From IMG/VR virus record IMGVR_UViG_3300044980_000094, positions 1 to 56,213 of that record: 56,213 nt of DNA; one strand, 5' to 3'. The DNA is from a virus. Lineage: Duplodnaviria; Caudoviricetes. Positions 757 through 55,337 of the stretch are shown here, piece after piece. A program made the translations under genes and the position numbers. How positions within the stretch are numbered: position 1 is the stretch's first letter; the number at the start of each line of letters is the position of its first letter. The notes beneath the pieces were generated by a model, which worked only from the letters and a program-made list of their open reading frames with translations, searched no databases and had not been told where the DNA came from.

Positions 757-1035
757 ATGTGGCCTAATCCAATGACCAACCACAAGCCTGCCAGTCCGAC
801 CAAAATTCTTTTTTGCGAGACTTACGAGCGGCATTTGCGCCGCTTATGGGCTTGGACTCGGGATGCCAACAAACTAGCCGAGTTCATGCGCAGCGTTGAG
901 CAGACTCTAGACGGCGGCAATACCTGGAGTCGCAGCGGTGAAGCTTATGACGCCACACTGGCCGAATTGGGCCTCCCCAAAAAGACAAGTCTCAAAGCCC
1001 TGCAATCGATGCCAGTTGGGGAGCCTGCTCAATGA
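757..1035 (+). CDS. Hypothetical protein (start may be 772)
   Basis: ORF, ATGA overlap with next gene. Confidence 0.7.
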   Translation: MWPNPMTNHKPASPTKILFCETYERHLRRLWAWTRDANKLAEFMRSVEQTLDGGNTWSRSGEAYDATLAELGLPKKTSLKALQSMPVGEPAQ

Positions 1036-1430
1036 CCAAATCCCTCAAACTCGCCCGCCCGCCCGGCCCCTTCCTGGTCCTAGTCCTCGACCCCGACGGC
1101 CGTCTGGCAATCCAAGGCGCCAACGGCAAGTCGATTCCGCTTCGCGACTTCAACCCGCGCCAGACCCTCGAGGCACGGCTTGCCAGCCAAGCCCAGACCG
1201 CCAAGACCATATCGGCCATAGCAGCCCAGGCTCCCCAGCCAAAGGCTCCAGCCCCCAAGCCAAAGCCCCTAGCCAAGACCGCGCCGCCACTGACCTCTTG
1301 GCGTAGCCTGGGCGGCGGGATACAGGTAAGGCAAATTCCCCCAGGGCTGTCCGGAAAGCAATTCGCGGCCCTGATGCCAGCGGCAATGCCGCTGCCCATG
1401 CCAGTTAACTCCTCCCAGATTGACTTCTAA
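1032..1430 (+). CDS. Hypothetical protein ending in QIDF
   Basis: Coupled start; Ala/Pro/Lys linker; C-terminal IDF. Confidence 0.7.
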   Translation: MTKSLKLARPPGPFLVLVLDPDGRLAIQGANGKSIPLRDFNPRQTLEARLASQAQTAKTISAIAAQAPQPKAPAPKPKPLAKTAPPLTSWRSLGGGIQVRQIPPGLSGKQFAALMPAAMPLPMPVNSSQIDF

Positions 1431-1450
1431 CCAACTCCCCCGGAGCCCCT

Positions 1451-1651
1451 GTGATGCCCAAGCCCCAATTCCCCCTCGCGCCCAAATTCCGCCTATCCCA
1501 GAACCTCGACGGGTCCGAGTCCTTCGAGTTCGAGGTCATCGACCCGAACGACGAGCCCATATGGGCGAGCCTAATCGGCCTAACAGGGCTCTGCCTTGGC
1601 GGGATATTCATCGGCTGCTTGGCGGCGTTTATGGTCATTTGGCTAGCCTAG
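1451..1651 (+). CDS. Small membrane protein
   Basis: GGAG RBS; C-terminal hydrophobic segment. Confidence 0.65.
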   Translation: MMPKPQFPLAPKFRLSQNLDGSESFEFEVIDPNDEPIWASLIGLTGLCLGGIFIGCLAAFMVIWLA

Positions 1652-1697
1652 CAGCCAGCCCATTCATGCTAGCCCATATGTCCTTCGGAGCCCAACA

Positions 1698-2012
1698 ATG
1701 CACATTTCCCAACTCCTAATCTCCATCGAGCAGGCCAACTGCGAACTAACGGTCATGAGATTCTCCGAGCCCTTCATGCGTCCGAACATATGGGATGTCG
1801 TGCTGCGCTACACGGACGGCAACGGCACCAAGATCGAAACGCACAAAAAAGGGGAGGTATTCGTGGAGGCCCTCGAGGCAGCCTGGGCTGCATTTTCGAT
1901 CTTGGCCAAAAATGGCCTCCCAGCTGGGGCACTATTGGCGCCAATCGAGCCATGCGGCCAATCCTGCCAGCCCAGCCTGCCGACCTTTGCCACCTGCTAT
2001 GACTCCCGGTGA
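1698..2012 (+). CDS. Hypothetical protein
   Basis: GGAG RBS 7 nt upstream of ATG. Confidence 0.7.
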   Translation: MHISQLLISIEQANCELTVMRFSEPFMRPNIWDVVLRYTDGNGTKIETHKKGEVFVEALEAAWAAFSILAKNGLPAGALLAPIEPCGQSCQPSLPTFATCYDSR

Positions 2013-2229
2013 ACAGCAGGCCAAGAGCCTGATCTACAGTCCCAAGGGCTGCTGGCTGATCGCGACCGACTACGGAACCTGGGGCGCGTTCGACTATGCC
2101 CGGAAATGGCTGGGGGAATTAGACAGCCCCGAGGCGATTGTGAAAATGCTGGCCCAAGCCAAAGCTGCCAGCCCAGCGGCCAGCCCAGCGGCCAAGGCTG
2201 CCATATCTGCCGGCGAAATCGACTTCTAG
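1999..2229 (+). CDS. Hypothetical protein ending in EIDF
   Basis: Start MTPGEQ overlapping previous gene; AASP repeat linker; C-terminal IDF. Confidence 0.7.
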   Translation: MTPGEQQAKSLIYSPKGCWLIATDYGTWGAFDYARKWLGELDSPEAIVKMLAQAKAASPAASPAAKAAISAGEIDF

Positions 2230-2381
2230 GACACTTCTAAACCAAAAGGATTACCCAATGCTTGTCGTTGCGACTGTAATCGGAGCTTTGCTGCTGCTGG
2301 CCCTGCTTGCCGGCCCGAGGGGCCACAGGGGCCACAGAGGCCACTAAGGGGCCATTTGCAACTCCAGGAGTCTAACCCACA

Positions 2382-2648
2382 ATGCCCAATCATAGCCGAA
2401 TCTGCGTCAGCGACACGAATTTGTGGCTCGCTGAAACCGAGCTCAACATCCAAGTCGAATACTCCATAACCCCAGTCGTGCCAGCCGGACACGACCAGCC
2501 CGCAAGCGGGGGTGAGATCGAGATCCTAGACGTCCGGCCATTCACAGAGAAGCCGGGCGGTAAGCGCCAATGGCTAGAATGTCCACAATGGCTGACCGAA
2601 ATTCTGCTAAAGGCCATCGACGAGGAGGATTTGGATGGACACGACTGA
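2382..2648 (+). CDS. Hypothetical protein
   Basis: AGGAG RBS; globular acidic composition. Confidence 0.7.
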   Translation: MPNHSRICVSDTNLWLAETELNIQVEYSITPVVPAGHDQPASGGEIEILDVRPFTEKPGGKRQWLECPQWLTEILLKAIDEEDLDGHD

Positions 2649-2922
2649 GCAAGTGGTCATGGACGATAGCCAAGCTGCGGTGGACCATGCCCATCCAGCC
2701 CATCCAGCCCATCCCGACATGGCGGCCCTGAATGCAGCCCTGACCCCGTCCCTGCCCCCATTCGCTTGGCCGCACATTGGCGCAGCGGTGGTCAATTGCG
2801 TTCTCCTAGCCATTAGGCAGAACGCCCGCCAAGAGTTCTCCGACCAGGACTTCGAGAGACTCATGCAGATGTTGGCCTTGGCCGAGGAGTCGGCCCGAGA
2901 AGCGCCATTGCTGTGGCCCTAG
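2635..2922 (+). CDS. Hypothetical protein
   Basis: GGAGG RBS; HPA repeats. Confidence 0.65.
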   Translation: MDTTEQVVMDDSQAAVDHAHPAHPAHPDMAALNAALTPSLPPFAWPHIGAAVVNCVLLAIRQNARQEFSDQDFERLMQMLALAEESAREAPLLWP

Positions 2923-2924
2923 GC

Positions 2925-3122
2925 ATGAATCTGCTAATCGGCCACGACCTCGGCCTCGCATGCCGCCAATGCGGCAAGGCCTTGGGTCGACTGCCAGCCC
3001 AAGCCCGGCATAAGCGATTCTGCAGTCGCGAATGCCGACTGCAATGGCACAATCTGCGAACACGCAAGGCCAGGACCATGCTAGCGCAGATGGAACAAGA
3101 GAGCAAGGAGCCCCAGTCGTGA
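2925..3122 (+). CDS. Small Cys-rich (zinc-finger-like) protein
   Basis: CRQC...RFCSREC motif. Confidence 0.65.
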   Translation: MNLLIGHDLGLACRQCGKALGRLPAQARHKRFCSRECRLQWHNLRTRKARTMLAQMEQESKEPQS

Positions 3123-3358
3123 TGCAATTCAAGACCAACATGAATAGAGTATTTCGTGCAAACACGGAGAATAGAAAACAAAGTTTCACGAAAATGCTCG
3201 CCGAGTTCGCCAGCACAATGGCCAGACAAGGCATAACTGTTTACGGCAGCGGTATCGGCGGGATTCATATGCAAATGGCCGGCCAGCATATGGTCTACAA
3301 GTCCATCCCCGAAGCAGCCGAGGCAGCAGAGAGATTCATTCTGGGAGAGGATCAATGA
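3122..3358 (+). CDS. Hypothetical protein
   Basis: AAGGAG RBS, TGATG coupling. Confidence 0.6.
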   Translation: MQFKTNMNRVFRANTENRKQSFTKMLAEFASTMARQGITVYGSGIGGIHMQMAGQHMVYKSIPEAAEAAERFILGEDQ

Positions 3359-3807
3359 CGGAGCAGCAAATGCCAGGCGCAGCAGCGCGTGCTGCACGCA
3401 GCCGAGATTGCCTATTTGCCCCACTCGTCGGAAGCCGTTTTGTGCCGCCGGCAATGATTATTCTCAATCTTCTCCCCCAGAACTGCAAAGTCGAACTAGT
3501 GCCAGAGCAGAGCAATCCCTACGACTCCGGCGCCATTGTGGTGCAGGTCCGAACGGAACAGATACCAGCGGATGAGCTCAGGGCAATGACCGAAGACCTA
3601 CTAGGCCAAGGGTTTTCGCCCGAGGACCTGGCAGCCAAGCCCTCCTGGCCACTTGGCCACCTTGCCGCCAGTGGCGGCAAGCCCTTGGCCAAAATGCGCA
3701 ATACTCGGCCAGACTTGATCGGCACAGCCGAGCTTGCAAGCTTGGTGCCCTGCGAGGCCGAGTTGCGATTCGAAGGAGAATTTGTGCTGGTAGTGGTGGC
3801 CCAGTGA
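3355..3807 (+). CDS. HIRAN-domain protein
   Basis: VGSRF...VELVPEQSNPYDSGAIVV matches the HIRAN L.REP.NPYD..AI.V pattern. Confidence 0.75.
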   Translation: MTEQQMPGAAARAARSRDCLFAPLVGSRFVPPAMIILNLLPQNCKVELVPEQSNPYDSGAIVVQVRTEQIPADELRAMTEDLLGQGFSPEDLAAKPSWPLGHLAASGGKPLAKMRNTRPDLIGTAELASLVPCEAELRFEGEFVLVVVAQ

Positions 3808-3947: not shown

Positions 3948-4183
3948 GCGAGCACGGCAGAACACAGGCAGAGCACGACGCCGCCGTGATGCAGATGCGC
4001 AGCGTTATCGAACGCGAGCAGCCTGAAACCGCCGCGCTGCGCTCCCAGCTCGCCAGCCGCGACGCCGAGATTGACGCGCTATGCCGGGTCATCAAGGCTT
4101 ACACGGGGGTCCTGATCAAGACCTGCGCGCTGGTGAACGCTCTCGAGGAGGAACTCGCCAGGTTAAGAAGTCCCGCATCGTGA
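3944..4183 (+). CDS. Hypothetical coiled-coil protein
   Basis: Coupled ORF, heptad-like pattern. Confidence 0.6.
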   Translation: MSEHGRTQAEHDAAVMQMRSVIEREQPETAALRSQLASRDAEIDALCRVIKAYTGVLIKTCALVNALEEELARLRSPAS

Positions 4184-4446
4184 GTCGCCCCGTCATCCTG
4201 ATCATCGGAGCCTTGCTCGGCATTGCGACGGCGGGCGCGGACGAATACCTGCAACGCAATAATGACCAGTCGTTACGGGATCGTCCGCTCCCGATTTGCG
4301 CTCTCTCTCTGTTCTCCGACGGAAAAACAGTGCTGATCGATTTCCGCAGTCCAGCGGTTACCTATAGCGGAGAGTTTCCAGTCGATGACGCAGCGCGGGT
4401 GCTTTTCGAAAGCGTTGAATTACTACGTGAGGAACAGTGCAAATGA
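4180..4446 (+). CDS. Small exported protein, paralog A
   Basis: GTG start overlapping upstream stop; signal peptide ending ATAGA-D; shares C.LSL..DGKT..I.F....VT..G..PVDDAA...FESV with next gene. Confidence 0.7.
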   Translation: MSRPVILIIGALLGIATAGADEYLQRNNDQSLRDRPLPICALSLFSDGKTVLIDFRSPAVTYSGEFPVDDAARVLFESVELLREEQCK

Positions 4447-4742
4447 TCTCCCGCATATTTATCCTTAGCCTCCTAGTCGTCGTCGCGCCGGCGGCACAGG
4501 CAGACGAACGCCTGCCATCTGGGCAGCCGTTCCAACTGTTGAACCCGCAGGATAACCAAGCAATCATAGGTATTTTGCAGCCAATGTGCACGCTCTCGCT
4601 AAACGCAGACGGAAAGACAGCATCGATCAATTTCTGCGGCACGAAAGTCACGTTCACCGGTGATTTGCCAGTCGATGACGCGGCGAAGATGTTTTTCGAA
4701 AGCGTGGGAGCCCTGCGCCAGCCGGGGTGCGGGAAGCCATGA
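4443..4742 (+). CDS. Small exported protein, paralog B
   Basis: Signal peptide ending AAQA-D; paralog of 4180-4446. Confidence 0.75.
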   Translation: MISRIFILSLLVVVAPAAQADERLPSGQPFQLLNPQDNQAIIGILQPMCTLSLNADGKTASINFCGTKVTFTGDLPVDDAAKMFFESVGALRQPGCGKP

Positions 4743-4987
4743 CCAACTCTATCCTGAGCCTTGGCCCACTGCTTGGCGTCGCGACAGGGGCGGGCGCTAT
4801 GGGAGCGCTTTGTATCGGCGGAATCTTGTGCTTCTTCATTGGTTTCAGGTTGATCAGCAACGGACTTGATTGTGTCAGCAGTTTTGGCATTGCTCAGGTG
4901 TTCTTTGCGCTTCCAATGTTTATCTTGGGCGGGCTGCTGATTTTATATGGTTCTAACATCGCCCCTTCTTTGTTTTGGTGGATTTGA
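4739..4987 (+). CDS. Membrane protein
   Basis: Two to three hydrophobic segments; coupled start. Confidence 0.65.
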   Translation: MTNSILSLGPLLGVATGAGAMGALCIGGILCFFIGFRLISNGLDCVSSFGIAQVFFALPMFILGGLLILYGSNIAPSLFWWI

Positions 4988-4988
4988 C

Positions 4989-5350: not shown

Positions 5351-5890
5351 ATGGCAAGCGCAGTTGAACTGGCTTATGGAATTTTGTGGCGGATTGTGAC
5401 TAGCGACAAGCAGATACATCTGGCGAGGAAATTACTTCTCGACGGCCTCGGCAAGGACGGCCAGCGGCGAGGGATAGAGGCGGCGATTGAGCAACTCGGA
5501 CTGGTCGGCCACGACGACGGCGCCTCTGTGTCCGACCCCTACACCCGCGCCGCCCGCGACGTGATCGCCGAGCGCCTGCGCCAGATTAGCGAGGAGGGCT
5601 TTACCCCAGAGTATGATGATCTATACAAGAATGGCAGTCTTGCCTTAGCTGCGGCCTGCTATGCGATCGCCTCAGATTGCGACGACAAAGAAAGAAAATC
5701 CCTCGATCCCTCCTGTGTCTTCTGGAGCACAACCGATGCAGCGTTTGTTTGGCAAAAAATGTGGCCTTTTCCTATCGGCTGGTGGAAGCCCAAGGATCGT
5801 CGTCGCGATCTCGTCCGCGCCGGCGCGCTGATCCTCGCCGAGATCGAGCGCCTTGATCGCGCAAGCGCAGGGAGTAATGAACATGGTTGA
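5351..5890 (+). CDS. Conserved phage hypothetical protein
   Basis: AARDVIAERLRQ..EG..PE.DD...LALAAACYA...WP...WWKP...RRDLVRAGALILAEIERLDR, a widespread phage domain. Confidence 0.8.
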   Translation: MASAVELAYGILWRIVTSDKQIHLARKLLLDGLGKDGQRRGIEAAIEQLGLVGHDDGASVSDPYTRAARDVIAERLRQISEEGFTPEYDDLYKNGSLALAAACYAIASDCDDKERKSLDPSCVFWSTTDAAFVWQKMWPFPIGWWKPKDRRRDLVRAGALILAEIERLDRASAGSNEHG

Positions 5891-7269: not shown

Positions 7270-7278
7270 GAGGCAATT

Positions 7279-7557: not shown

Positions 7558-7560
7558 CTG

Positions 7561-7923
7561 ATGTCTGCTGCGGTCATAGTAATTCTTTGGTCGGCCTTTG
7601 TGGGACTTGTCATCCTTGTGTGCATAATGTGGGCTAAGATTCGCACTCTGCAAATGCGTGCCATTGAGATTGAGAACGCGGCCCTTGCCACATCCCAAAG
7701 CCAAGAGGACGATTCGGTAATCAAATTCTATTCAGACGGCGATATTTTCCCAAAAGCCAAGAAAGAGCATACGGGTTTTGTGCGCTTACATTTCTTCTAC
7801 AATGAAGAGCATAATAGGCTAATGAACGCAATCATGCAATACGGTCAGCAGTGTATCGACAGCGATGGCCGAGTTTTTTATACTCTCCGAAAGAAATACC
7901 TACCCACAAAGGACCAGCAATGA
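7561..7923 (+). CDS. Membrane-anchored hypothetical protein
   Basis: N-terminal TM segment. Confidence 0.65.
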   Translation: MSAAVIVILWSAFVGLVILVCIMWAKIRTLQMRAIEIENAALATSQSQEDDSVIKFYSDGDIFPKAKKEHTGFVRLHFFYNEEHNRLMNAIMQYGQQCIDSDGRVFYTLRKKYLPTKDQQ

Positions 7924-9482
7924 ATAGCCCATTTGTGCCAACCCCAGAGCAGCAGGCCATCGTAGATGCCGCGAGCAATCGCCATTCGTTAATGATCCAA
8001 GCCTATGCTGGTTGTGCCAAGACGACGACCCTAGCATTGGCAGGGGGGAAGATTAAAGTCCCAGGCCTGGCCCTAGCATTCAACAAATCCATCGCGCAGG
8101 AGTTGGAAAAAAGATTCGAGCCCAATTTCGCCGTGCGGACTATGAACGGGGCCGGATTTGCGGCTCTGCGAAGACAGTTCAGCAGGGTCACGAACTGGGA
8201 AATCGACAACAAGAAGAACGGCAAGATTGTGACAGCAATGGCGAAGGAGAGGAAGATAGCCCTGGCCAGCAGCGACTGGCAAGCAGTAGTGGCCTTGGTC
8301 GGCGCGGCGCAGAATGCTGGGTTAGTGCCTCGGAGACAGGGCCAGGGCCTAGTGGACGATGACTTCAGGGTCTGGGAAGACCTTGGGGATGGCCTAATGC
8401 TGCATCGGGACGACATGGGGCTATATGCTGAATTAGCCTCGACCGCCCTGGCGCGTAGTAATGAATTGACAACTCAGGGCAGGATTAGCTTTGACGACCA
8501 GATCTACTACCCGGTGGCCTTTGGGGCCGAGTTTACCCGCTATCCAGCAGTACTAGTCGATGAGGCCCAAGATCTCAATGGGCTCAATCACGAAATGATA
8601 AGGCGGAGCCTGAGACCAGATAGCAAGCTCGTGGTTTGCGGGGACCCTTTGCAGAGCATATATGCCTTTCGTGGCAGCGTTAACGAGTCGATGAAAAAAA
8701 TGCTGGGGCTGCGAAATGAATGGGAGCATCTGGCATTGAGGGTCACGTTCCGCTGCCCGAGGATAGTGGTGCGACGGCAGCAGACTCATGCGCCTGGGTT
8801 CACAGCAGCGGCGGGGTGCAGGGATGGCCTTTGGCAAAGACTAGGCAGGGCCGAGGACCAATTGAGCTGGAACCGGCAAGACATTCCCCAAATCGGCACC
8901 GTGGCTGTGCTTTGCCGCAATAATGCCCCATTGCTGGGGCTTGCGTTCAAACTCTTAGCCCAGAGAATCGGCGTCGTCATGCTGGGCCGAGACCTCGGTA
9001 AGGGCCTAGTGGGGCTCTGCAGAAAGATCGAACCAGTCGGAAGTACAAGTGCGGCCACATTCGCGGCAAAGCTCGATGCCTGGGCGGAGAAAGAGATCTC
9101 ATTAGCCGAGGCTAACGGGCTAGATGCTAATGTGGAATCCATATGGGACAGGGCGGGCTGTATCCGGACTGTGATTGGTAGCTGTGACCCAAGAACTGTC
9201 GATGACATATGTGCGCAACTGGAGGCCCTATTTGCTCGCGAGACTGGGCTAGTAACTCTGTCCTCGATCCACAAGGCTAAAGGCCGTGAGTGGGATTGTG
9301 TAATCCATCTCGACCCATGGCGACTGCCTAGCCGCCAAGCCAAGGATGCCGCCCTACTGGGCAATTTGCGGCCAATGCAGCAGGAGAGGAACTTACTGTA
9401 TGTCTGCGAGACTAGGACGAGGAATTGGCTCATTGAGGCAAATCTGGCAGACTTTGCAAGGGGCAAGGCCATGGTTGATTAG
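7920..9482 (+). CDS. UvrD/Rep-like SF1 helicase
   Basis: AYAGCAKTT (Walker A variant), VDEAQD, GDPLQSIYAFRG, TFRCP, SIHKAKGREW, ERNLLYVCETR. Confidence 0.92.
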   Translation: MNSPFVPTPEQQAIVDAASNRHSLMIQAYAGCAKTTTLALAGGKIKVPGLALAFNKSIAQELEKRFEPNFAVRTMNGAGFAALRRQFSRVTNWEIDNKKNGKIVTAMAKERKIALASSDWQAVVALVGAAQNAGLVPRRQGQGLVDDDFRVWEDLGDGLMLHRDDMGLYAELASTALARSNELTTQGRISFDDQIYYPVAFGAEFTRYPAVLVDEAQDLNGLNHEMIRRSLRPDSKLVVCGDPLQSIYAFRGSVNESMKKMLGLRNEWEHLALRVTFRCPRIVVRRQQTHAPGFTAAAGCRDGLWQRLGRAEDQLSWNRQDIPQIGTVAVLCRNNAPLLGLAFKLLAQRIGVVMLGRDLGKGLVGLCRKIEPVGSTSAATFAAKLDAWAEKEISLAEANGLDANVESIWDRAGCIRTVIGSCDPRTVDDICAQLEALFARETGLVTLSSIHKAKGREWDCVIHLDPWRLPSRQAKDAALLGNLRPMQQERNLLYVCETRTRNWLIEANLADFARGKAMVD

Positions 9483-9562: not shown

Positions 9563-10063
9563 ATGCCCCGCACAATGCCCCTTACGATCTCATTCTACGA
9601 GTTCTCAATCTCAAAACCCTACCACGAGGGCTTTGCGATCTCGCAGGCCGAGGCGCAGATATTGAACACCGCAAAGCGAGACGCCCTGGCGGCCCAAGGG
9701 GCCAAAGAACTGGCCAAAATGCGCCCTCAGGGCGAGCAGGGGCTGTTGAGCAGCCAACAGCTTGAGGCCCTGACACTTTTGATTGCGGACCTGGACATGC
9801 AATTCGCATTCAAATTGCGTCCAAATCCGCGCCCGCGCAGTGGGACACTGAATCAGGAAATCCAACTCGTGGCTATGGAACGCGTCGAGGCCGAGGCGAG
9901 GAAATTAGGGCTTAAGCTCAGCTCGCAGCAGTTCGAGGCCGCAGTGCAGGAATGGCGCGCCGATGGGGCGATCATTGGCGAGGCTAGGAGGAGATTCGAG
10001 GAAAGGCTCAAAATCAACACCATGCCTTTGAGTGAACTCTTTGGAGAGCAGCCCGGTGGCTGA
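9563..10063 (+). CDS. Hypothetical protein
   Basis: First ORF after promoter; helical composition. Confidence 0.7.
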   Translation: MPRTMPLTISFYEFSISKPYHEGFAISQAEAQILNTAKRDALAAQGAKELAKMRPQGEQGLLSSQQLEALTLLIADLDMQFAFKLRPNPRPRSGTLNQEIQLVAMERVEAEARKLGLKLSSQQFEAAVQEWRADGAIIGEARRRFEERLKINTMPLSELFGEQPGG

Positions 10064-10373
10064 GGCTAGCCAACAGGGCATGGGTATGGCCCTGGTGGCC
10101 CTGGCGGCCCCAGAGGCCAACTCCTGGCCTCTGCTCACCGACGATGACTTCATGGGGCTGCTTTGGCAGGCCCTCGGGAGCCCCTATGGGCTGCTAGTCC
10201 AAGCCAGCAACCCCGATGCATTCCGCCAGCGCTGCTACGTCCTGCGACGCAACAGCCTAGACGAAAGGCTCAAGGACTTGACATTTCGCGGCAGCCCATT
10301 TACTAGCGGTAATCTTTGCATTGTCAAACAATCTGCCATGATGCCAAAGAGCGAGACCAAAAAGCATGTCTAA
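10056..10373 (+). CDS. Hypothetical protein (start uncertain)
   Basis: GGAG then GTG; overlaps neighbours. Confidence 0.65.
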   Translation: MAEASQQGMGMALVALAAPEANSWPLLTDDDFMGLLWQALGSPYGLLVQASNPDAFRQRCYVLRRNSLDERLKDLTFRGSPFTSGNLCIVKQSAMMPKSETKKHV

Positions 10374-10635
10374 GCGAACCGAGAAGCCAACTGTCGCCAG
10401 GCATTTGAAACTCTATGAAGAGGACTGGCTGTTTCTGTGTGAGCATTATGGGCCAGATAGTCCGACCAAATACGGCCCAGGGGCTGTGGTAAGAGAATTG
10501 CTCCATGCGCGGATTAAGGCCATTAAGGCGACAATGACTCGGGCCGTTGAGCACTCACAGGTCGAGGACCAAGCCCAAGTGAGCGAGCAACTGATTGCCA
10601 AGATGGAAGCCCAGGCACGGGGGCAGCAGCCATGA
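10366..10635 (+). CDS. Hypothetical protein, possibly ribbon-helix-helix-like
   Basis: Basic beta-strand followed by two helices; assignment weak. Confidence 0.6.
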   Translation: MSKRTEKPTVARHLKLYEEDWLFLCEHYGPDSPTKYGPGAVVRELLHARIKAIKATMTRAVEHSQVEDQAQVSEQLIAKMEAQARGQQP

Positions 10636-10904
10636 GCGACCTAAAGGGCCAAATTCCCCAGTCGAATGCACTTAGCGAGGCCACTCCAGAGTCACTAAGT
10701 GAACTATTTGCGACTAACCCAGAGCAACTCGATCCAAGGACCGAGGCTGGAGCAGTGAGACTAAAACGCATGGTCGAGGCCCTGAGGAAAATGTATGGGG
10801 CCTGGGCGCTGAGCGAGCAACAGGCCAAGCTGCCCAAGGCCAAGGCCAAGCCACCAGCTGCGAAACTCAGCGCCCCCGTCAGCAGTGAAGGGCTGGACTT
10901 CTAA
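10632..10904 (+). CDS. Hypothetical protein ending in GLDF
   Basis: Coupled at both ends; Lys/Ala/Pro linker; C-terminal LDF. Confidence 0.72.
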   Translation: MSDLKGQIPQSNALSEATPESLSELFATNPEQLDPRTEAGAVRLKRMVEALRKMYGAWALSEQQAKLPKAKAKPPAAKLSAPVSSEGLDF

Positions 10905-11884
10905 TGCCCCAGCCAGCGAGCCAGCCCCAGGCTAACTGGGCCGATCCCCGATTCAGCCCAGTCCTGCTCAATTTACAGGTCAAAATCAATTCCTCCTCCC
11001 TCGGGCCGTTCAAAAAATGCCCCCGATATTATCAGTACACCATCATCGATCAGCTGCAAAGTCGCGCCAGCAGTGTCCACTTGACCTTCGGAACCCTAAT
11101 TCACGAGGCTATTGGAGCCTACGAGGCCAAGAGACTCGCTGGCGCCGATCACGAGTCGGCCCTGTTGCAGGTCGTCCACAGCGTGCTGTTGCGGACATGG
11201 AATGTCAAACTGGGTCGTGGCTGGCAGAGCGGCCACGCGGACAAAAACCGCGAGGGGCTGATTAGGACAATTGTGTGGTATCTGGACGCGCAGAGAGACT
11301 CGGCCTTACAGACCTTGCAGCTGCCTAGCGGCCCCGCGATCGAGTTGAGATTCGAGTTCGACTCTGGCTACACAGCCAGCACAGGAGAACGAATCACATT
11401 CTATGGGACCCTAGATCGGCTAGTCGAGATCAGCAACAGGCCCTATATCCTAGATACCAAAACGACTGGTTATAAAGTCGATACGGGATTTTTCAATCGG
11501 TTCAGCCCTGATAATCAGTTTAGCCTCTACATCCTCGCGGCCAAGGTCGCATTCGCGGTTCCGGCTGAGGGGCTAATCTGCGACGCCATCCAGGTCGGGG
11601 CGACCTTTTCGCGATTCCAGCGGGGTATAATCCCCCGAACGGATGAGCAGGTTAATGAATGGCTCCACGATGCCCACTGGTGGCTAGGGCAGATGGATTC
11701 CTGTGCCCAGAAAGGCCATTGGCCGATGAATGACAAGTCTTGTGGACTCTTTGGTGGCTGCGAGTTCAGGGAGATCTGCGGAACCGCGCCAAAGGCAAGG
11801 GGGCTCTGGCTGGGGCAGAGTTTCGAGACCAAAGAGGCCAGCGGGGCTGGCGGAGCTAACGAACCCAATGAATTTGTGATTTGA
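10904..11884 (+). CDS. PD-(D/E)XK exonuclease (RecB/AddB/Cas4-like)
   Basis: SSS...F.KCPR, FGT.IH, GTLDR...ILDTKTT, Q..LY, C-terminal C..xxC....C Fe-S-type cysteines. Confidence 0.88.
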   Translation: MPQPASQPQANWADPRFSPVLLNLQVKINSSSLGPFKKCPRYYQYTIIDQLQSRASSVHLTFGTLIHEAIGAYEAKRLAGADHESALLQVVHSVLLRTWNVKLGRGWQSGHADKNREGLIRTIVWYLDAQRDSALQTLQLPSGPAIELRFEFDSGYTASTGERITFYGTLDRLVEISNRPYILDTKTTGYKVDTGFFNRFSPDNQFSLYILAAKVAFAVPAEGLICDAIQVGATFSRFQRGIIPRTDEQVNEWLHDAHWWLGQMDSCAQKGHWPMNDKSCGLFGGCEFREICGTAPKARGLWLGQSFETKEASGAGGANEPNEFVI

Positions 11885-11909: not shown

Positions 11910-12791
11910 ATGCCAACCTTTGAGACCTATTCGGAATCTCCCAGCCCAATCAAGATGATCTATATGGGCCACAGCGGAGCTGGCAAGACTGGCTCCTTAG
12001 CCAGCCTGGCCGCTACAGGATATAATGTCAGGATTCTTAATCTGGAGAAAGGAATCGAGATCCTAGCCGGATATGCCCGCGATCCTCGGAGTCCGTATCT
12101 GAAGGCCAACCCTGGGCATTGGAGCGCAGAGCAAGCCAAGGGCTTGGCCGGACGGATTTCCTACGTGACCATCGATGAGCCTGTGCATGTTATTAAGAGC
12201 CCCAAAGGGGCGGAACTGATTCCCAAGGGCGAAATGTGGGGCAAAGTTAGCGAGCAATTGAATGACTGGAAAGACGGCGCCAGCAGTTTGGGCAACATCG
12301 ACACCTGGACCGGCAATGACGTGTTAGTCATTGATTCATTGACCCGGCTCTCGCAGGCAGCGTTTAATTTCCAGCTCAAACTTGGCGGCAGGCTTAACGG
12401 CAGGCCAGAGCAGGCCGACTACGGGCTGGCTCAAAGGAGCCTATTAAGGCTCTTGGAATTATTCTATTCCGACAGTGTGAAGTGCAACATTGTTATTATC
12501 TGTCATATCAAATATATCGAAACCGAGGCAGGACCAACGCGGGGCTTCCCGGAGACAATCGGGAATGCCATTAGCCCTAAGGTCGGGCAGTATTTCAACC
12601 ATGCCCTGCTGGCCAAGTCCTCCGGCAGCGGTGAGGCGACTAAGAGAGTCATTTTGACCAATACCTCTGGGATGATCGAGCTGAAATCCGCAGCGCCATT
12701 GCAGGTCAAGGCGGAATATGACCTGAGCACGGGATTAGCTGATTATTTTAGAGATGTAAAGGGGGGCTATCCGAATCGTGCGAGGGAATAG
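11910..12791 (+). CDS. AAA-family ATPase, Sak4-like recombinase
   Basis: GHSGAGKT Walker A, VLVIDSLT Walker B, IICH; located between exonuclease and SSB-like gene. Confidence 0.85.
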   Translation: MPTFETYSESPSPIKMIYMGHSGAGKTGSLASLAATGYNVRILNLEKGIEILAGYARDPRSPYLKANPGHWSAEQAKGLAGRISYVTIDEPVHVIKSPKGAELIPKGEMWGKVSEQLNDWKDGASSLGNIDTWTGNDVLVIDSLTRLSQAAFNFQLKLGGRLNGRPEQADYGLAQRSLLRLLELFYSDSVKCNIVIICHIKYIETEAGPTRGFPETIGNAISPKVGQYFNHALLAKSSGSGEATKRVILTNTSGMIELKSAAPLQVKAEYDLSTGLADYFRDVKGGYPNRARE

Positions 12792-13538: not shown

Positions 13539-13976
13539 ATGGTCGATTTTTCAGCAATGCTACAGAAATCCCCCGAGGCCCTTCCGAAGCCGCCAGCCTT
13601 GCCTGTCGGCAACTATGGCGGGACGATTATTCGATACGAGTTCGGGGACAAGAACAAAAACAACACCCCATACTGTCGGGTGTTTGTCAAACTCCACACC
13701 TGGCCGGACGAAGTCCCCGAGGATGAGCGGGCCGGACGCGGCAGCCTCGGCCAATTGAGCCGAGACTACTATCTCCGTGATAAGGACGGCGGAGATGGGA
13801 TCCAGTGGATGCTGGCGGAATTGCTGCGCAGCTGTGGCCTCAGTGGCCGCCCGATGGAGGAACTGATCCCGGAACTCAACGGTAAAGAGGTCATTGCCGG
13901 GGTCAAGCAGTATATCAACGAGAAGACCTCTGAGATCGGCAACGACATCTCTAGGCTCACGGGTCAAGGAGGCTAG
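13539..13976 (+). CDS. Putative single-stranded DNA-binding protein (DUF669-like)
   Basis: P..LP.G.Y...I.....KN.NT pattern, size and position in the Sak4/exonuclease module. Confidence 0.65.
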   Translation: MVDFSAMLQKSPEALPKPPALPVGNYGGTIIRYEFGDKNKNNTPYCRVFVKLHTWPDEVPEDERAGRGSLGQLSRDYYLRDKDGGDGIQWMLAELLRSCGLSGRPMEELIPELNGKEVIAGVKQYINEKTSEIGNDISRLTGQGG

Positions 13977-15769: not shown

Positions 15770-16495
15770 ATGCCAGCAGGCTCCATCGTAGCCCTATTCG
15801 ACATGACTGGATATTCGGTCCGCGATTGGGCACTCGTAGGCGAGACCTGTTATTGTCTCGATATGTATAACGACGGCAGACAGGAGCAATTCCCATCCGG
15901 TGGCTCAATTACATACCTATATTGGGAGGCCTTGGACCCAACGGCCCTAGGCCAGATCGCAGCCCTCAAACCCAAGTTCCTGTTCGCATTCCCGCCTTGC
16001 ACGGACTTGGCCGTGAGCGGTGCTGCACATTTTGAGTCCAAACGAGCAGAGAATCCGAGCTTCCAAGACGAGGCCCTCTATTTGGCTTTAATTGCGCCGA
16101 GCCTCGGCAAGCGTCTGGGGATTCCGTGGTTTGTGGAGAACCCAGTCGGGACGCTCTCCACCCTATGGGGCAAACCGGATCATATTTTTGAGCCTTGGGA
16201 GTTCGGAGGCTACCTGCCAGCCAGCGACACGCATCCAAAATGGCCAGAATACATCGAGGCCCGCGATGCGTATCCCAAGACGACCTGCATTTGGAGCGGA
16301 AATGGTCTCAAATGGCCCGAGCGCAGACCAGTAGAGCAGACCTGCATAGTGAGCAAGAATGGAAAGAAATGGAGTAAACAACAGGCCAATCTCGGGGGCA
16401 AGAGTTTGAGGACGAAACAGATCCGCTCAGCGACTCCGAGGGGATTCGCAAGGGCGATTTTCGAGGCCAACTATGCCAGCCAGCAGCCAAGATGA
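15770..16495 (+). CDS. Phage C5-cytosine DNA methyltransferase-like protein
   Basis: LFD.TG, FAFPPCTDLAVSGA, VENPV, Y.K.TC.W, RS.TP.GFA. Confidence 0.82.
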   Translation: MPAGSIVALFDMTGYSVRDWALVGETCYCLDMYNDGRQEQFPSGGSITYLYWEALDPTALGQIAALKPKFLFAFPPCTDLAVSGAAHFESKRAENPSFQDEALYLALIAPSLGKRLGIPWFVENPVGTLSTLWGKPDHIFEPWEFGGYLPASDTHPKWPEYIEARDAYPKTTCIWSGNGLKWPERRPVEQTCIVSKNGKKWSKQQANLGGKSLRTKQIRSATPRGFARAIFEANYASQQPR

Positions 16496-16551
16496 CCGTG
16501 ACAGCCAGCAACCCAACCTTCGCCCTGCGCGGCCAAGCGATGGACTTCTGA
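16492..16551 (+). CDS. 19-aa micro-ORF MTVTASNPTFALRGQAMDF
   Basis: ATGA overlap with methylase stop, TGATG overlap with UDG start; ends in MDF. Confidence 0.45.
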   Translation: MTVTASNPTFALRGQAMDF

Positions 16552-17735
16552 TGACCCAGCCAACAAGTCAGCCAGCAGGCCAGCTGGCCGTCCATAGAGC
16601 CTTATCCCCATTTACCGCCCTGAGTGGCCCCTATGACGCCAAGATATTACTCGTCGGCGAAGCCTGGGGCGAAACTGAGGCCGAGTTCGGCCGTCCATTC
16701 GCCGGGGCTAGTGGGCGAGAACTATTCTCGATGTTGAGCGAAGCCACAGGGCATGAGCCAGCCTTGGCTTCTCATTGCCTTGCCGCGCATGGATATGAGT
16801 GGCTGAGGCGAAGAGAGCAGTGGCTGGCCGAGGCCAGCATCGCCATGACCAACGTGCTTGCCCTGAGGCCACAAGGCAACAATTTGGCCTCGCTCTGCAG
16901 GACTAAACCAGAACTCAAATCCCGGGGCCTTGTCCCCGACCGGCCCGAGATCATCCCAGGCAAATATCTGCACCCCAGATACCAGCCCGAACTGGATAGA
17001 CTCCAAGCCGAAATTGCTGCCATTAAGCCCAACATTGTGGTTGCACTGGGTAATACTGCCTGCTGGGCTTTAGCCAATCGAACCAATATCGGCAGCATTC
17101 GTGGAGCTATCAGCCCAAGCCTGTATGGCCCTAAACTTTTGCCGACCTATCATCCTGCGGCCATGATGCGCGTCTGGTCTTGGCGGCCGATCATAATCGC
17201 CGATCTAATCAAAGCCTGGCGTGAGTCAAAGTGGCCGGAAATCCGCCGCCCCGAGCGGGAGATACTAACTAGCCCCACGATTGAAGAGGTAGAGGCTTGG
17301 ACTGCTAGGACATTGGCGAAGCCGCCAAGGTTGCTGGCCAATGACATCGAAACCGCCCGAGGCTTTATCACAATGATGAGCTTCGCCGCAAGCCCCCAGG
17401 ACGGAATCGTCATTCCATTTGCAAGCCTGCAGGCCCCAAATGGCTGCTATTGGCCGACACAAGCCCAAGAGGAGCGGGCCTGGGCTTGCATATGCGCCCT
17501 GCTCAGTAGCCCAATTCCCAAACTCTACCAGAATGGCATGTATGATTTGCAATACGAGGCTTGGCGCATGCGTCTGCCGGTTCGCAATGTGGCTGAGGAC
17601 TCTATGCTGCTGCATCATAGTATCATGCCGGAAATGCTTAAGGGCTTAGGTTTTTTGGGCAGCATTTATAGCCAAGAACCGGCCTGGAAACTAATGCGGC
17701 TACACAAGGCCGACACGGATAAACGAGACGAGTAA
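16551..17735 (+). CDS. Uracil-DNA glycosylase-like domain fused to N-terminal part of 3'-5' exonuclease (split DNA polymerase, part 1)
   Basis: LVGEAWG, F.GASG, TNV, PTYHPA; ExoI DIET and ExoII QNGMYD; no ExoIII. Confidence 0.85.
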   Translation: MTQPTSQPAGQLAVHRALSPFTALSGPYDAKILLVGEAWGETEAEFGRPFAGASGRELFSMLSEATGHEPALASHCLAAHGYEWLRRREQWLAEASIAMTNVLALRPQGNNLASLCRTKPELKSRGLVPDRPEIIPGKYLHPRYQPELDRLQAEIAAIKPNIVVALGNTACWALANRTNIGSIRGAISPSLYGPKLLPTYHPAAMMRVWSWRPIIIADLIKAWRESKWPEIRRPEREILTSPTIEEVEAWTARTLAKPPRLLANDIETARGFITMMSFAASPQDGIVIPFASLQAPNGCYWPTQAQEERAWACICALLSSPIPKLYQNGMYDLQYEAWRMRLPVRNVAEDSMLLHHSIMPEMLKGLGFLGSIYSQEPAWKLMRLHKADTDKRDE

Positions 17736-17761
17736 CTGCGAACGCACTATGGAGCTCCAAT

Positions 17762-18124
17762 ATGTTCTCATATCTTGCTAGTCCGTATTCACACGAGGCT
17801 AAATCTGTCCGCGAGGATCGATTCAGGGCTGTCGAATGTGCTTGGGTCTGGCTAATGCGCCAGCAAAAATGGACCTATTCTCCGATCGTCCATGCGCATG
17901 CAGCCGCAAAGCAATACGAGATGCCGACAGATTTTGCCTTTTGGCGCGCATACAACGAGGCCATGCTAGCCAGCAGCCATGGCCTGATTGTGCTGACCTT
18001 GCCCGGCTGGCAAGACTCCAAGGGTGTCACGGCAGAGATTGAATTTGCGCTCGCACGCAAATTGCCCATCGACTACCTTGCCGCGCAGGGCTGGGGCAAA
18101 TTCTCTTGGACCGGACAATTCTAA
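17762..18124 (+). CDS. DUF1937 / nucleoside 2-deoxyribosyltransferase-like protein
   Basis: YLASPYS, SPI.H.H, W..S.GV..EI..A. Confidence 0.82.
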   Translation: MFSYLASPYSHEAKSVREDRFRAVECAWVWLMRQQKWTYSPIVHAHAAAKQYEMPTDFAFWRAYNEAMLASSHGLIVLTLPGWQDSKGVTAEIEFALARKLPIDYLAAQGWGKFSWTGQF

Positions 18125-19697: not shown

Positions 19698-20972
19698 ATG
19701 TATTCCTCCGAAATCTTAGTTGGAGCCAATGTGGAGCCCCCACAGCCAGTCCGTTCCTCAACCCCGCTGCCAGAAGATTTCATATCTGATTTCTTCTCCT
19801 ACACAGCAGACGTGCGTTCGCCCGAGCTGTTCCGCACCTGGACGGCCATTACGATCGTCGGGGCAGCCCTCGAGCGCAGGGTCTGGGTCCGCACAGGCCC
19901 ATACGCGACGTTTCCGAATATGTTTACTCTGCTCGTGGCCCCACCCGGCACAGGCAAGAAAGTTATCGAAAAAGCCTCGGAGCTACTGGGCGAAACCCTT
20001 CGGCCGGACACGAAAATCAAGGCTTTCCATGTGGCCCCGCAGTCTATCACCAAAGCTGCCCTCATTGACACTCTCAAGGACTCCAAGCAGACCACCCTTA
20101 CTCGGCAGGGCAAGACTTTCGTCTACCATGCCCTGTTTATTGGCGCCGAGGAGTTCTCGGTCCTATTGCCCAGCCACGACCCGGAGTATGAAGGAGTCCT
20201 AAACTCGCTCTGGAACAACAGCGCACTGTTTCATGAACGTCGCCGACATGGAGATCGAAAGGAAACCCTAATCGAGTTCCCGATTCTCAACATGCTCGCA
20301 GGAGTCCAGCCGAGTTTCTTGAGCCAATTGCCGCCGGAGACTTGGGCCTCGGGGCTAAGCCGCAGATTCATTATGATCTACAGCGCCGAGCAGCGCATTC
20401 GCGATCCATTCCTAGTCACAGTGGATGAGGAAGAATTGAAAGAAAAAATGCTAGCCAAGTTACGCAAGATGTCTGACCTGCAGGGTCAGATCACCTGGAG
20501 CCCAGAGGCACAAAGCACATTCACGGCCTGGGTCATGGGCGGCAGTCCGCCGAGGCCGATACATTCCAAACTCACAGCCTATGTATCGAATCGGGAAATG
20601 AATGTGATGAAACTGGCCGGAATCAGTGCAGTCAGCCGAGGCCAGATGCAAATCGCGGCCGTTGACCTGGCTCGGGCCATGGAATGGCTACTCAACGCCG
20701 AAACCATAATGCCGGACATATTCCGGGCCATGATCTCCAAGAGCGACCAAGACATCATCGATGAACTGTATTTGGCCGTTAGCTCGCTATGGAAAATCTC
20801 CAACGGCAAGCCTGTCGACGGGGCCTTTGTCTGGCATTTTGTCTCCAGCCGAACCACAAGCGACAAGGTGGAGAAGATTATCAATCTGGCGGACAAAATG
20901 CAAGCTGTGGTGAGAATCGCGGGGACGGAGAATTTCAAACCCATGCCCAGGTGGCAGATTAAGATGGAGTAA
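19698..20972 (+). CDS. DUF3987/YfjI-like P-loop ATPase (putative replicative helicase)
   Basis: SPE.F..W, PN....VAPPGTGK, EEFS, G...RF. Confidence 0.75.
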   Translation: MYSSEILVGANVEPPQPVRSSTPLPEDFISDFFSYTADVRSPELFRTWTAITIVGAALERRVWVRTGPYATFPNMFTLLVAPPGTGKKVIEKASELLGETLRPDTKIKAFHVAPQSITKAALIDTLKDSKQTTLTRQGKTFVYHALFIGAEEFSVLLPSHDPEYEGVLNSLWNNSALFHERRRHGDRKETLIEFPILNMLAGVQPSFLSQLPPETWASGLSRRFIMIYSAEQRIRDPFLVTVDEEELKEKMLAKLRKMSDLQGQITWSPEAQSTFTAWVMGGSPPRPIHSKLTAYVSNREMNVMKLAGISAVSRGQMQIAAVDLARAMEWLLNAETIMPDIFRAMISKSDQDIIDELYLAVSSLWKISNGKPVDGAFVWHFVSSRTTSDKVEKIINLADKMQAVVRIAGTENFKPMPRWQIKME

Positions 20973-50882: not shown

Positions 50883-50913
50883 GGCCCCCAGCCCATGCCC
50901 ATGCCTGCCTCTG

Positions 50914-53706: not shown

Positions 53707-53729
53707 TTTGGGCTCCTCTTTGATCGATG

Positions 53730-53774
53730 ATCCGACCCTAGCTCACGCTTCGGCCCGTGTCAACATAAATCGAC
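53730..53774 (-). promoter_or_regulatory. Repeated sigma70 promoter, copy 1
   Basis: TTGACA-17-TAGGGT; 45 bp identical to 54257-54301. Confidence 0.82.
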
Positions 53775-54019
53775 ATGACTTGGCATGCCAAATGAGCATG
53801 ACGCCGATCTAATCCTCGCATGACATTAGATGGCCAGCGCGGGCCAAGGGCGGACATGAAGCCATTGGGCTATGCCTGGCCCGCCGATCTAATGTTGGCA
53901 TTTTGTTCTAATTCACGAGCTGCAGAGGGTTGCATCGCGCAACTCAAGCGTGCATGGCTGGCCAACGAAAAGGGGCGCATTGCTGCGCCCCGATCCGATC
54001 CGTTGCTAGCTTGGGCGCG

Positions 54020-54232
54020 CTAGTCAATCATAATCGAGTCGATCAATTCAATCAACTCGCTAAATGCTTGCGCGCGTCCGGTTTGTATCTTGCCCTGTTG
54101 CACCGTGGCTGCGCGTAGTTGCAACGATATAGACTCGTCGCGCTTGCCCCATGCCCATTTGCGAATGTCGTCTTTAAATTGTTCAGCGGCTTGCAATGGG
54201 GTTAAATTGCCGAGTCGGAATGTGATCTGCAT
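54020..54232 (-). CDS. Small early protein
   Basis: AAAGAGGAG RBS and own promoter. Confidence 0.78.
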   Translation of the reverse strand: MQITFRLGNLTPLQAAEQFKDDIRKWAWGKRDESISLQLRAATVQQGKIQTGRAQAFSELIELIDSIMID

Positions 54233-54256
54233 GACCTGGGCTCCTCTTTGTTGACA

Positions 54257-54301
54257 ATCCGACCCTAGCTCACGCTTCGGCCCGTGTCAACATAAATCGA
54301 C
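54257..54301 (-). promoter_or_regulatory. Repeated sigma70 promoter, copy 2
   Basis: TTGACA-17-TAGGGT; identical to copy 1. Confidence 0.82.
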
Positions 54302-54307
54302 CCAGCA

Positions 54308-54565
54308 TCACGAATAGTCTGGTTGCGAGCTTTCGGGCGCGAGGATCAGGTCTGATGGCGGACAATTGCATTCGGCAATCCGCTGATATTGGCCATCAAT
54401 CATAACCGTGTCACGATACGGCCAATTACTGCCGTCATTTGCCAATTCGCCATTGAAGAATATGTTGCGCGCACCGTTATACCCGCGCCCCTCCGTGTAA
54501 GCGATGCTCTTACAGTTCCAACGGAGATTTGAATGATGCTTACACGTAAGATGAATGTGATTCAT
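54308..54565 (-). CDS. Small Cys/His-containing early protein
   Basis: AAAGAGGAG RBS; C..H...W.CK...R.IFF...EC.C. Confidence 0.78.
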   Translation of the reverse strand: MNHIHLTCKHHSNLRWNCKSIAYTEGRGYNGARNIFFNGELANDGSNWPYRDTVMIDGQYQRIAECNCPPSDLILAPESSQPDYS

Positions 54566-54590
54566 GACCTGAGCTCCTCTTTAATTGCCA

Positions 54591-54635
54591 ATCCAATACT
54601 ATCTCAAGCCTCGGGCCATGTCAACACAAATCGAC
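54591..54635 (-). promoter_or_regulatory. Repeated sigma70 promoter, diverged copy 3
   Basis: GTCGATTTGTG-TTGACA-17-TAGTAT. Confidence 0.8.
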
Positions 54636-54671
54636 ATGGCCCGAAGGAATTATTTGGAGTCGACGTTGGGA

Positions 54672-55337
54672 TCAGAAATCCACCCCACCCGCCTTGGCAG
54701 CCTGCTCGGCCAACTTCTGGCTTTCTCGCGCCTTACGGTCAAGGGTGGCCTGGGCCGACTTGCGGAGCTCGGCGTCGAACTTGGTCATATAGCCCTCGAT
54801 GAACGAACTCCACGTGCGGGTCGTGCCATTGTCGAGGGTGAAGACATAGTCCGGCTTCGGAAAAGCCGTGCCGTTCTTGCCCCAGGCACCGGTAACGCCA
54901 CTCGCGACCAGCCGCGCCTTGACCTTGTTCCGAGCCTCGAGGGCCATTTCGGCCTCGAGCGGGCTAAGCCTCGGCCCACGCTCGCCGCCATCGCCCAACG
55001 TGCCGGCGAAGATTTCGGCCAAAAACTCGGCCCGGACGGCTTCGCACTTGGCGGCGAACTCAGGGCTCTTCGAGAACTTGTTCTCCCGAAGCCGGGTTCG
55101 GATCGCGTCCTCGGCGGCCTTGCGGGCCTCTTTGACCGGCACTGGGTCCATGGCGTTGATGGCCTCCCGGACGACGTCGCTCGTGACGGCGCTCGAGGTC
55201 TCACTGCCGTGGATATGGGTAGCGCCACGATTGATGAGGGCCACGATCGAGGCCAAGGGGGTGTCGGCGATCTTGAACGCGTTGCCGCCCCAATTCCACG
55301 TGGCCGAGGCGATATTGGTATTGTCGGTATCGGACAT
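54672..55337 (-). CDS. Early protein ending in GVDF
   Basis: GGAG RBS; own promoter; C-terminal VDF. Confidence 0.8.
   Translation of the reverse strand: MSDTDNTNIASATWNWGGNAFKIADTPLASIVALINRGATHIHGSETSSAVTSDVVREAINAMDPVPVKEARKAAEDAIRTRLRENKFSKSPEFAAKCEAVRAEFLAEIFAGTLGDGGERGPRLSPLEAEMALEARNKVKARLVASGVTGAWGKNGTAFPKPDYVFTLDNGTTRTWSSFIEGYMTKFDAELRKSAQATLDRKARESQKLAEQAAKAGGVDF

Follow-up and report, generated by a model that had tools for sequence, protein, structure and literature searches.

In phage T7, gp2.5 (ending EDGDF) and gp4 (ending NDTDF) bind the T7 DNA polymerase through their C-terminal tails, and in phage T4 the C-terminal region of gp32 (ending LDDLLNDL) recruits Dda, gp59 and other replication and recombination proteins; T4 gp33 ends TLDFLL. 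Clients of the bacterial sliding clamp dock through the beta-clamp motif, the consensus of which has Gln at the first position and falls into pentapeptide and hexapeptide classes. A peptide of T4 gp32 (residues 248–270) that contains VADDLDAF is reported to bind a cavity of the Dda helicase through V258, L262 and F265 (PMC11551737), and Sak4 of phage HK620 is reported to need the last six residues, NDYPPF, of its SSB (the protein that binds single-stranded DNA), the tip of bacterial SSB being DDDIPF (PMC5928155). Here we describe a C-terminal tripeptide, [ILV]-D-F, that is shared by five genes of a Caudoviricetes virus record (IMGVR_UViG_3300044980_000094), the 56,213 bp of which, called the window throughout, are complete or nearly so (97% completeness by the collection's estimate). 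These endings, hereafter tags, most plausibly (probability about 0.6) represent this phage's version of a portable C-terminal docking peptide that has one receptor per phage.

Five genes that end in [ILV]-D-F

Genes in the window and its relatives were called with our own simple codon-usage caller, which placed 75 genes in the window. Five of them end in [ILV]DF, and no other C-terminal dipeptide is as common as DF (5/75). The five genes are as follows.

1032–1430, plus strand: protein of 132 aa without a family, ending PVNSSQIDF; tag codons 1419–1427, stop TAA
1912–2229, plus strand: protein without a family, ending AKAAISAGEIDF (tip AGEIDF); tag codons 2218–2226, stop TAG
10632–10904, plus strand: family A protein of 90 aa, ending SEGLDF; tag codons 10893–10901, stop TAA
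14256–15767, plus strand: fusion of ParB_N with an N6/N4 DNA methyltransferase, 503 aa (PF02195, PF01555, PHROG 3264/498/67), here ParB-methyltransferase, ending RRAAKTLRSAPLDF (tip SAPLDF); tag codons 15756–15764, stop TAG
54672–55337, minus strand: family C protein of 221 aa without a Pfam or PHROG family, first gene of the minus-strand block, ending AAKAGGVDF; tag codons 54675–54683, stop TGA

All five endings translate as a first-pass annotation of the sequence had read them; only the start of the second gene differs, which lies at 1912 in our call (105 aa) and at the ATG of position 1999 in that annotation (76 aa). The annotation had also estimated far fewer than one expected case, and this holds: amino-acid composition predicts 0.0225 [ILV]DF ends per 75 genes (P = 4e-11), and use of the observed tripeptide frequency gives P = 5e-10, the expected number ranging from 0.02 to 0.04. 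The whole predicted proteome contains eight [ILV]DF tripeptides, five of which stand at a C-terminus, and when all six frames are cut from stop to stop, giving 831 segments of 40 codons or longer, exactly the five genes end in this way. None of the structural genes (22089–53108, minus strand) ends in [ILV]DF, in agreement with the claim that they lack the tag.

At the nucleotide level, the first codon of the tag is ATT, ATC, CTG, CTG or GTG, Asp is encoded by GAC three times and GAT twice, and Phe is encoded by TTC in every case. Two of the genes stop with TAA, two with TAG and one with TGA, and pairwise comparison of the 21 nt upstream and 30 nt downstream yields 5–12 identical positions, no better than chance. 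Because codons and stops vary and the flanking DNA is unrelated, selection acts on the peptide rather than on a DNA element, as had been argued from the sequence at the outset.

Counting the last residue as −1, Asp is found at −2 in all five tags, and all five fit the shape hydrophobic-x-hydrophobic-COOH. The residue at −6 is always small (S, A, S, S, A), as previously noted, and −8 is V, I or L in four of the five genes, a detail that had been missed. The last 25 residues are neutral to basic, with net charges of 0, 0, +3, +5 and +1. A flexible linker rich in Ala, Pro and Lys had been ascribed to most carriers; the share of A, P, S, G and K over the same residues bears this out for 1912–2229 and 10632–10904 (0.72–0.76) and less so for the other three (0.40–0.48). 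Apart from the ParB-methyltransferase, the carriers have no Pfam or PHROG family.

Portability between families and version agreement within genomes

Ten related virus records were gathered by searches with the methyltransferase, the polymerase and the exonuclease of the window. An exonuclease alignment led to 394 relatives in IMG/VR, 80 loci of which were fetched, and these were joined by 78 loci centred on the methyltransferase and nine from metagenome-assembled genomes (MAGs). The tag census covers 3,026 distinct proteins on 176 fetched stretches, some of which share one contig. In locus labels, the window is G000, the ten records are G001–G010 and the further loci carry L numbers.

Orthologues keep a C-terminal tag, the version of which differs by phage: [DE][LI]DF, DLGL, ELML/ELDL, [DE]FGI or NLDLL. 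Family A illustrates the range, ending GLDF in the window, DLDF in G003, DLGL in G001 and G009, ELML in G004 and NLDLL or NMDLLG in G007 and G008. The family C orthologue of G002 (37–39% identity) ends SADIDF; proteins of G004 and G006 that end TELDL and TELGL, respectively, we count as family C by reading alone, the searches having given no match. The product of 1032–1430 is remotely homologous to a G003 protein with the ending ELNF (pairwise BLASTP E 3e-5, 26% identity). No homologue of the 1912–2229 product was detected in the fetched relatives, and only its tail aligns with a G002 protein that ends ELDF. Annotation searches added little: Pfam returned nothing above its own cut-offs for ten tagged relatives, a cluster look-up of the carriers gave no informative names, and the ESM Atlas held no usable match for the 54672–55337 product.

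Family A is, as judged from sequence, the best conserved carrier, and its members mostly end in EDLGL behind a tether predicted to be disordered. A profile search retrieved 1,302 members (E <= 1e-3) among 1.84 billion cluster representatives; no match was found in the cultured-phage collection. The tail logo reads A/P, E/D/G, D/E, L, G/D, L/F. Among the best 150 of the 1,302, a hydrophobic-x-hydrophobic end is present in 113, and the motif lies within the last nine residues in 16 more. Of the 113 tails, 101 have D or E at −4 and 87 have L at −3; position −2 is occupied by G (75 tails) or D (33), and the last residue is L (77), F (24) or I (11). The tether has no majority residue in the alignment consensus, and the tip is far better conserved. 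In the window, the family A protein consists of a small helical N-domain, a 26-residue unstructured tether of Lys, Ala and Pro, and the tip SEGLDF; an AlphaFold2 (AF2) model built from 98 sequences places helices at residues 12–64 and no secondary structure at 65–90, with predicted local distance difference test (pLDDT) values of 59–72 in blocks covering 61–90. Its gene lies directly upstream of the exonuclease gene, the ATG of which its stop codon overlaps, and the two are translationally coupled. Homologues keep the place of the tag and its general form (acid, hydrophobic, x, hydrophobic, COOH), not the literal [ILV]DF.

Some carriers have two tag copies in tandem, as in the minus-strand genes G008 4630–4884 and G009 5396–5677 (IDLDLLDS then VNLDLLEL; LDLEDLGL). 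Such copies would suit a receptor with two or more sites.

The enrichment extends over the whole census, in which 117 of the 3,026 distinct proteins end in [DE][LIMVF][GDNM][LFI] and 3.57 are expected; in a smaller non-redundant set, 44 proteins are tagged and 1.11 are expected. The tag is portable between families. After removal of the tail, the 117 proteins fall into 29 BLASTP families, 16 singletons. Moreover, a single family may be tagged in one phage and untagged in another. Tagged copies of the ParB-methyltransferase occur in the window (PLDF), G009 (AVELGL) and L120 (SNLVF); the G003 orthologue (52% identity) stops at RRARGER, just before the tag, and those of G001, G004 and G005 end otherwise, untagged. 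Family E, a family of small proteins, is tagged in G001 (DLDL) and G004 (DLFE) and untagged in the window (10041–10373).

Within a genome, the tags of non-homologous proteins agree in version. All five are xDF in the window, and G002 and G003 have five that end in F. Only LGL or LDL tags are found in G001, G009, L116, L123, L178 and L183; L129 has three [DE]FGI tags and one LQLGI, L207 has three LDLDL tags and L198 three xDL tags. When 20 distinct tag sets of at least two tags each were compared, six were all-F, nine had no F and five were mixed (permutation P = 5e-5). In the exonuclease tree, F-type tags arise in at least four lineages (G000, G003, L044 and L120). Common descent cannot give unrelated proteins the same tail. 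The most economical interpretation is that all tags of a phage fit a single receptor.

The relatives also contain a separate class of 14 distinct proteins, mostly of 79–139 aa, that end in xIPF (DDEIPF, DDEMPF, DDDIPF or NDEIPF); examples are G004 23080–23430, G005 26402–26689, G007 2677–3096, L124 6655–6954 and L159 2107–3345, and there are none in the window. Pfam found no family in the three proteins of this class that were scanned. By their endings, they look like mimics of the host SSB tail that coexist with the main tag.

Candidate receptors and alternative readings

If the tag is a docking peptide, its shape is an optional acid followed by hydrophobic-x-hydrophobic-COOH at the end of an unstructured tether. 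In this very large phage group, which has the replication and recombination module in common, several unrelated early-region proteins of a genome carry the tag in one version, and each phage would accordingly have one common receptor pocket that binds the free C-terminal tip. The tag would then tether varied accessory proteins to one place, among them the methyltransferase fusion, the exonuclease's small partner and uncharacterised small proteins of the early region, and, if the receptor is a replication or recombination protein, would concentrate them on replicating phage DNA. By analogy, the receptor is probably such a protein of the phage itself; we favour this because of the T7 and T4 systems and because the carriers include a DNA methyltransferase and an exonuclease-coupled protein. 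The window encodes its early and replication genes on the plus strand, from 1 to ~21.8 kb, and its structural genes on the minus strand, among them those for the large terminase subunit, portal, major head protein, head closure and tail fibre. Apart from the tagged genes, the early and replication genes include the following.

7920–9482, plus strand: UvrD-like helicase, 520 aa (PF00580, phrog_1967)
10904–11884, plus strand: PD-(D/E)XK exonuclease, 326 aa (PF12705)
11910–12791, plus strand: Sak4-like RecA-core annealase, 293 aa (PF13479, phrog_124)
13539–13976, plus strand: OB-fold SSB-like protein, 145 aa, here protein X (AF2 fold and Foldseek); adjoins Sak4
15770–16495, plus strand: second methyltransferase
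16473–19668, plus strand: split family-A DNA polymerase, whole stretch (PF03167, PF00476, phrog_17)
16473–17735, plus strand: UDG and exonuclease part of the split polymerase
17855–18124, plus strand: DUF1937 gene, nucleoside 2-deoxyribosyltransferase-like, between the two polymerase parts
18124–19668, plus strand: polymerase part (PolA) of the split polymerase
19812–20972, plus strand: DUF3987 primase/helicase-type protein, 386 aa (PF13148, phrog_14296)

By the same analogy, the candidate receptors are the split PolA and either helicase (DUF3987 or UvrD-like), with Sak4 and protein X as less probable choices; protein X is a candidate for either a receptor or a further client. A class II PDZ ligand has the pattern hydrophobic-x-hydrophobic-COOH, and no PDZ domain was found among the 20 of 75 window proteins scanned with Pfam. 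One four-chain co-folding job, run twice without controls, combined PolA (514 aa, 24-row alignment), Sak4 (293 aa), protein X residues 21–145 and family A residues 50–90. With four chains, the arm of X removed and our own alignments, it lies outside the calibration of the tool, and its ipSAE of 0.00 in both runs is counted neither for nor against any receptor.

Two tag-like motifs were kept apart from the five. The 162-aa protein of 9575–10063 (plus strand), a possible further carrier, has a related motif near its C-terminus and ends PLSELFGEQPGG in the window; BLASTP-matched relatives end AIEDML in G003 and LEDLAA in G005, and proteins of similar length at this position in other loci end LSDLFDEAA or LDDLLDEAA. 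It was kept separate because its motif class is constant whatever the tag version of the phage. In almost every relative the UvrD-like helicase keeps A-N-L-[EK]-D-F at most a few residues from its end, and in the window copy nine extra residues follow it; this sequence resembles the tag, is likewise constant across tag versions and was not counted. A further conserved C-terminal motif is W-[DN]-P-L-x-V-R-G-D-[IV], in which the exonuclease of most relatives ends; that of the window ends in NEPNEFVI instead.

Among other small genes of the window, all on the plus strand, 10366–10635 encodes a small conserved protein that lies between two tag-bearing families and has no family match; by eye it looks like a ribbon-helix-helix DNA-binding protein. 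The adjacent genes 4180–4446 and 4437–4742 encode clearly similar products with a hydrophobic N-terminal segment and a common core; they resemble tandem duplicates of one gene, the protein being probably membrane-bound or exported. The 150-aa protein of 3355–3807, conserved in four relatives and without a Pfam or PHROGs match, contains N-P-Y-D-S-G-A-I-V-V, which we take to recall the HIRAN domain.

The phage group has hundreds of members in metagenomes, hardly any of which has been cultivated. Among cultured phages, the nearest is Caulobacter phage Kuura, with 38.6% PolA identity and the tails NIDDLFSE and SIDDLLSTL; a megablast search with 8 kb of the window gave no match in the phage collection. 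The L129 locus lies ~21 kb from the end of a 4.7 Mb MAG contig labelled Actinomycetota; either integration or a join made in assembly could account for this, and a genuine copy might point to a host.

A number of results weigh against a docking peptide with one receptor per phage. Conservation of the tag cannot be judged in 1032–1430 and 1912–2229, which have a weak homologue or none, and 21 of the best 150 of the 1,302 family A members have no motif at all. The acid at −4 is missing in three of the five window tags, whereas 101 of the 113 family A tails have it. Net charges are −6 to −13 for the tails of T7 and T4, compared with 0 to +5 in the window, and the analogy is to that extent loose. 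Version agreement is imperfect, as F and non-F endings are mixed in 5 of the 20 tag sets, mostly from the separate xPF (xIPF) class, and G and D are mixed at −2 within G001, L045, L146, L163, L191 and L202. The nine MAG loci are labelled Patescibacteria, Saccharibacteria, Holophagaceae, Acidobacteria, Bdellovibrio, Gammaproteobacteria, Actinomycetota and others; these labels are scattered over six phyla or groups and are unreliable as hosts.

A comparison of alignment columns that separate the four F-type lineages from 19–24 L-type relatives also adds to this side. No column in protein X and none in Sak4 follows the F-type tags; one does in the exonuclease, and one in the UDG-exonuclease part, for which three lineages were available. 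For PolA, the UvrD-like helicase and DUF3987, a single F-type lineage was available and the comparison has no power; a search for longer relatives of L120 and L044 yielded 78 more L-type or untagged loci and no new F-type lineage with a polymerase. The docking address proposed in the first-pass annotation fares unevenly: it is supported by the enrichment over controls, by the tags of homologues and by the single version per genome that one receptor predicts, whereas the literal [ILV]DF is not conserved, the tails are not acidic and the hub is not named.

One way to specify the receptor is to invert the usual role of an SSB. Protein X would have lost the recruiting tail, and its clients would carry the tail instead and dock on X-coated DNA. 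An AF2 model of X (44 sequences, pLDDT 88.9) has an OB fold, the best Foldseek match of which in the PDB is PrgE of pCF10 (8s4s_B, E 5.9e-5), followed by the OB folds of SSB, PriB and RPA. An acidic tail is absent from the C-terminus of protein X. The arm at the N-terminus of X, M-V-[DN]-F-x-x-L-L, hardly varies (above all F4, L7 and L8), and its gene directly follows Sak4 in almost every relative. PrgE's N-terminal tail is reported to bind the neighbouring monomer on DNA and to support filament formation (PMC11137577); PrgE and X share an OB fold with an N-terminal arm, at 11–12% sequence identity. The tags might occupy the place at which one X molecule would take up the arm of its neighbour, as happens with the PrgE arm. 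The arm of X is built from the residues that the tags use. The tag would then serve as a ticket to the phage's own single-stranded-DNA filament, and the phage-specific version would keep host and rival-phage proteins off that filament. The arm stays VDF or VNF whatever the tag version of the phage, which weakens the idea that the tags mimic it, and we regard this arrangement as unlikely, if still worth entertaining.

The receptor may instead be a host hub, with the tag a degenerate beta-clamp-binding motif and the host sliding clamp as its partner. The commonest end, L-G-L-COOH, matches the last residues of the tail by which E. coli Pol IV binds the clamp, and NLDLL of G007 and G008 resembles the pentapeptide consensus. 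A methyltransferase tethered to the clamp would be sensible, and no phage protein that was tested stands out by substitutions that follow the tag type. However, the defining Gln is missing from nearly all tags, present in one of the five in the window (SSQIDF, −4) and in 4 of 113 family A tails (−5 or −6), and the residue before the acid is small or acidic, not Leu. Clamp motifs also work internally and N-terminally, whereas the tags are exactly C-terminal in most relatives, and version differences between close phages would need matching changes in a very conserved pocket. Phage Mu MuC is reported to use the clamp (PMC12867686), and even so a host clamp as the common receptor seems to us improbable.

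We give just as little credence to the tag as a degradation or protease-docking signal, one that would set when a host AAA+ protease removes early proteins or would dock in hydrophobic pockets of the ClpP type. Hydrophobic C-termini exposed on disordered tails, carriers in the early region and the sporadic gain and loss of the tag between orthologues would all fit such a signal, and the hydrophobic-Gly-hydrophobic form resembles the tripeptide of the Clp ATPase loop that docks on ClpP. An acid near the end (101 of 113 at −4; Asp at −2 in five of five) is, however, atypical of ssrA-like L-A-A signals. Moreover, some of the tagged enzymes, the methyltransferase for one, are probably required from the beginning of replication to its end, and the conservation of the tail over 1,302 family A representatives, better than that of the tether, fits binding more easily.

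Mimicry of the bacterial SSB tip, by which the tags would dock on host SSB-interacting proteins and compete for or borrow these partners, has slimmer odds still. The shape (acid, I/L, x, F or L, free carboxylate and flexible tether) matches the reported DDDIPF tip (PMC5928155), and the OB-fold protein of the phage has no such tail. Pro at −2, however, occurs in none of the five window tags and in 1 of 113 family A tails, and a canonical DD[DE]IPF-like class coexists with LGL/LDL tags in one genome, which indicates that the two codes are kept apart. Coincidence, a by-product of a DNA element or a recent duplication of a 3′ gene segment can be set aside: TTC encodes all five Phe, though it is the commoner codon genome-wide (303 versus 212), and P is ~1e-10, codons and stops differ, flanks are unrelated and the tag recurs in 29 protein families.

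Comparison with known C-terminal tails

If the tags are docking peptides read by one receptor per phage, they offer a way into the roles of many uncharacterised proteins, in that tag carriers work at the same place, and a simple rule by which replisome- or hub-associated proteins could be found in uncultivated phages. They would also be a case from nature in which the specificity of a receptor shifts in concert with that of many ligands.

Of the described systems, T7 shares with the window the x-D-F at the extreme C-terminus (GDF and TDF in T7, as the first-pass annotation had stated; [ILV]DF in all five here), a tail found on more than one replication protein, and a T7-type family-A polymerase. 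By contrast, the T7 tails have net charges of −13 and −8 over 24 residues, compared with 0 to +5 over 25 in the window. The T7 carriers are an SSB and a helicase, two in number; here there are five or more, a methyltransferase and small proteins without a family, and the OB-fold protein is untailed. T4 gp32 resembles the tagged proteins in having an Ala/Lys-rich stretch followed by an acid-plus-Leu/Phe motif, and its end, LDDLLNDL, is close to the tails NLDNILNDL, LDDLLGDF and ADLLGDD of relatives. It differs in that one tail serves many receptors, whereas many tailed proteins here imply one receptor. In addition, the window tip comprises 3–8 residues preceded by Gly, Pro and Ser and is probably extended, not helical.

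The bacterial SSB tip has in common with the tags a disordered tether, an acid, a hydrophobic-x-aromatic end and a free carboxylate, and a Sak4 gene lies in the same module here. Besides the Pro at −2, it differs in its carriers: the tagged proteins are not OB-fold proteins, family A folds as helices, and a separate IPF class coexists in the relatives. The beta-clamp motif likewise brings many unrelated clients to one hub pocket through one short motif, the hydrophobic half of which L-G-L and L-D-L-L resemble; beyond the rarity of Gln, the tags differ in being strictly C-terminal and in varying in version from phage to phage. The literature that was searched on phage clamp-binding and docking motifs yielded no description of a C-terminal tag shared by many phage proteins. 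C-terminal docking tips of replication proteins are known, and what is unusual here is the number of clients, the phage-specific version and the untailed SSB-like protein. The tips of SSB, T7 and T4 have one or two carriers, whereas the present tag is found on at least 29 unrelated families and is rewritten in step in each genome.

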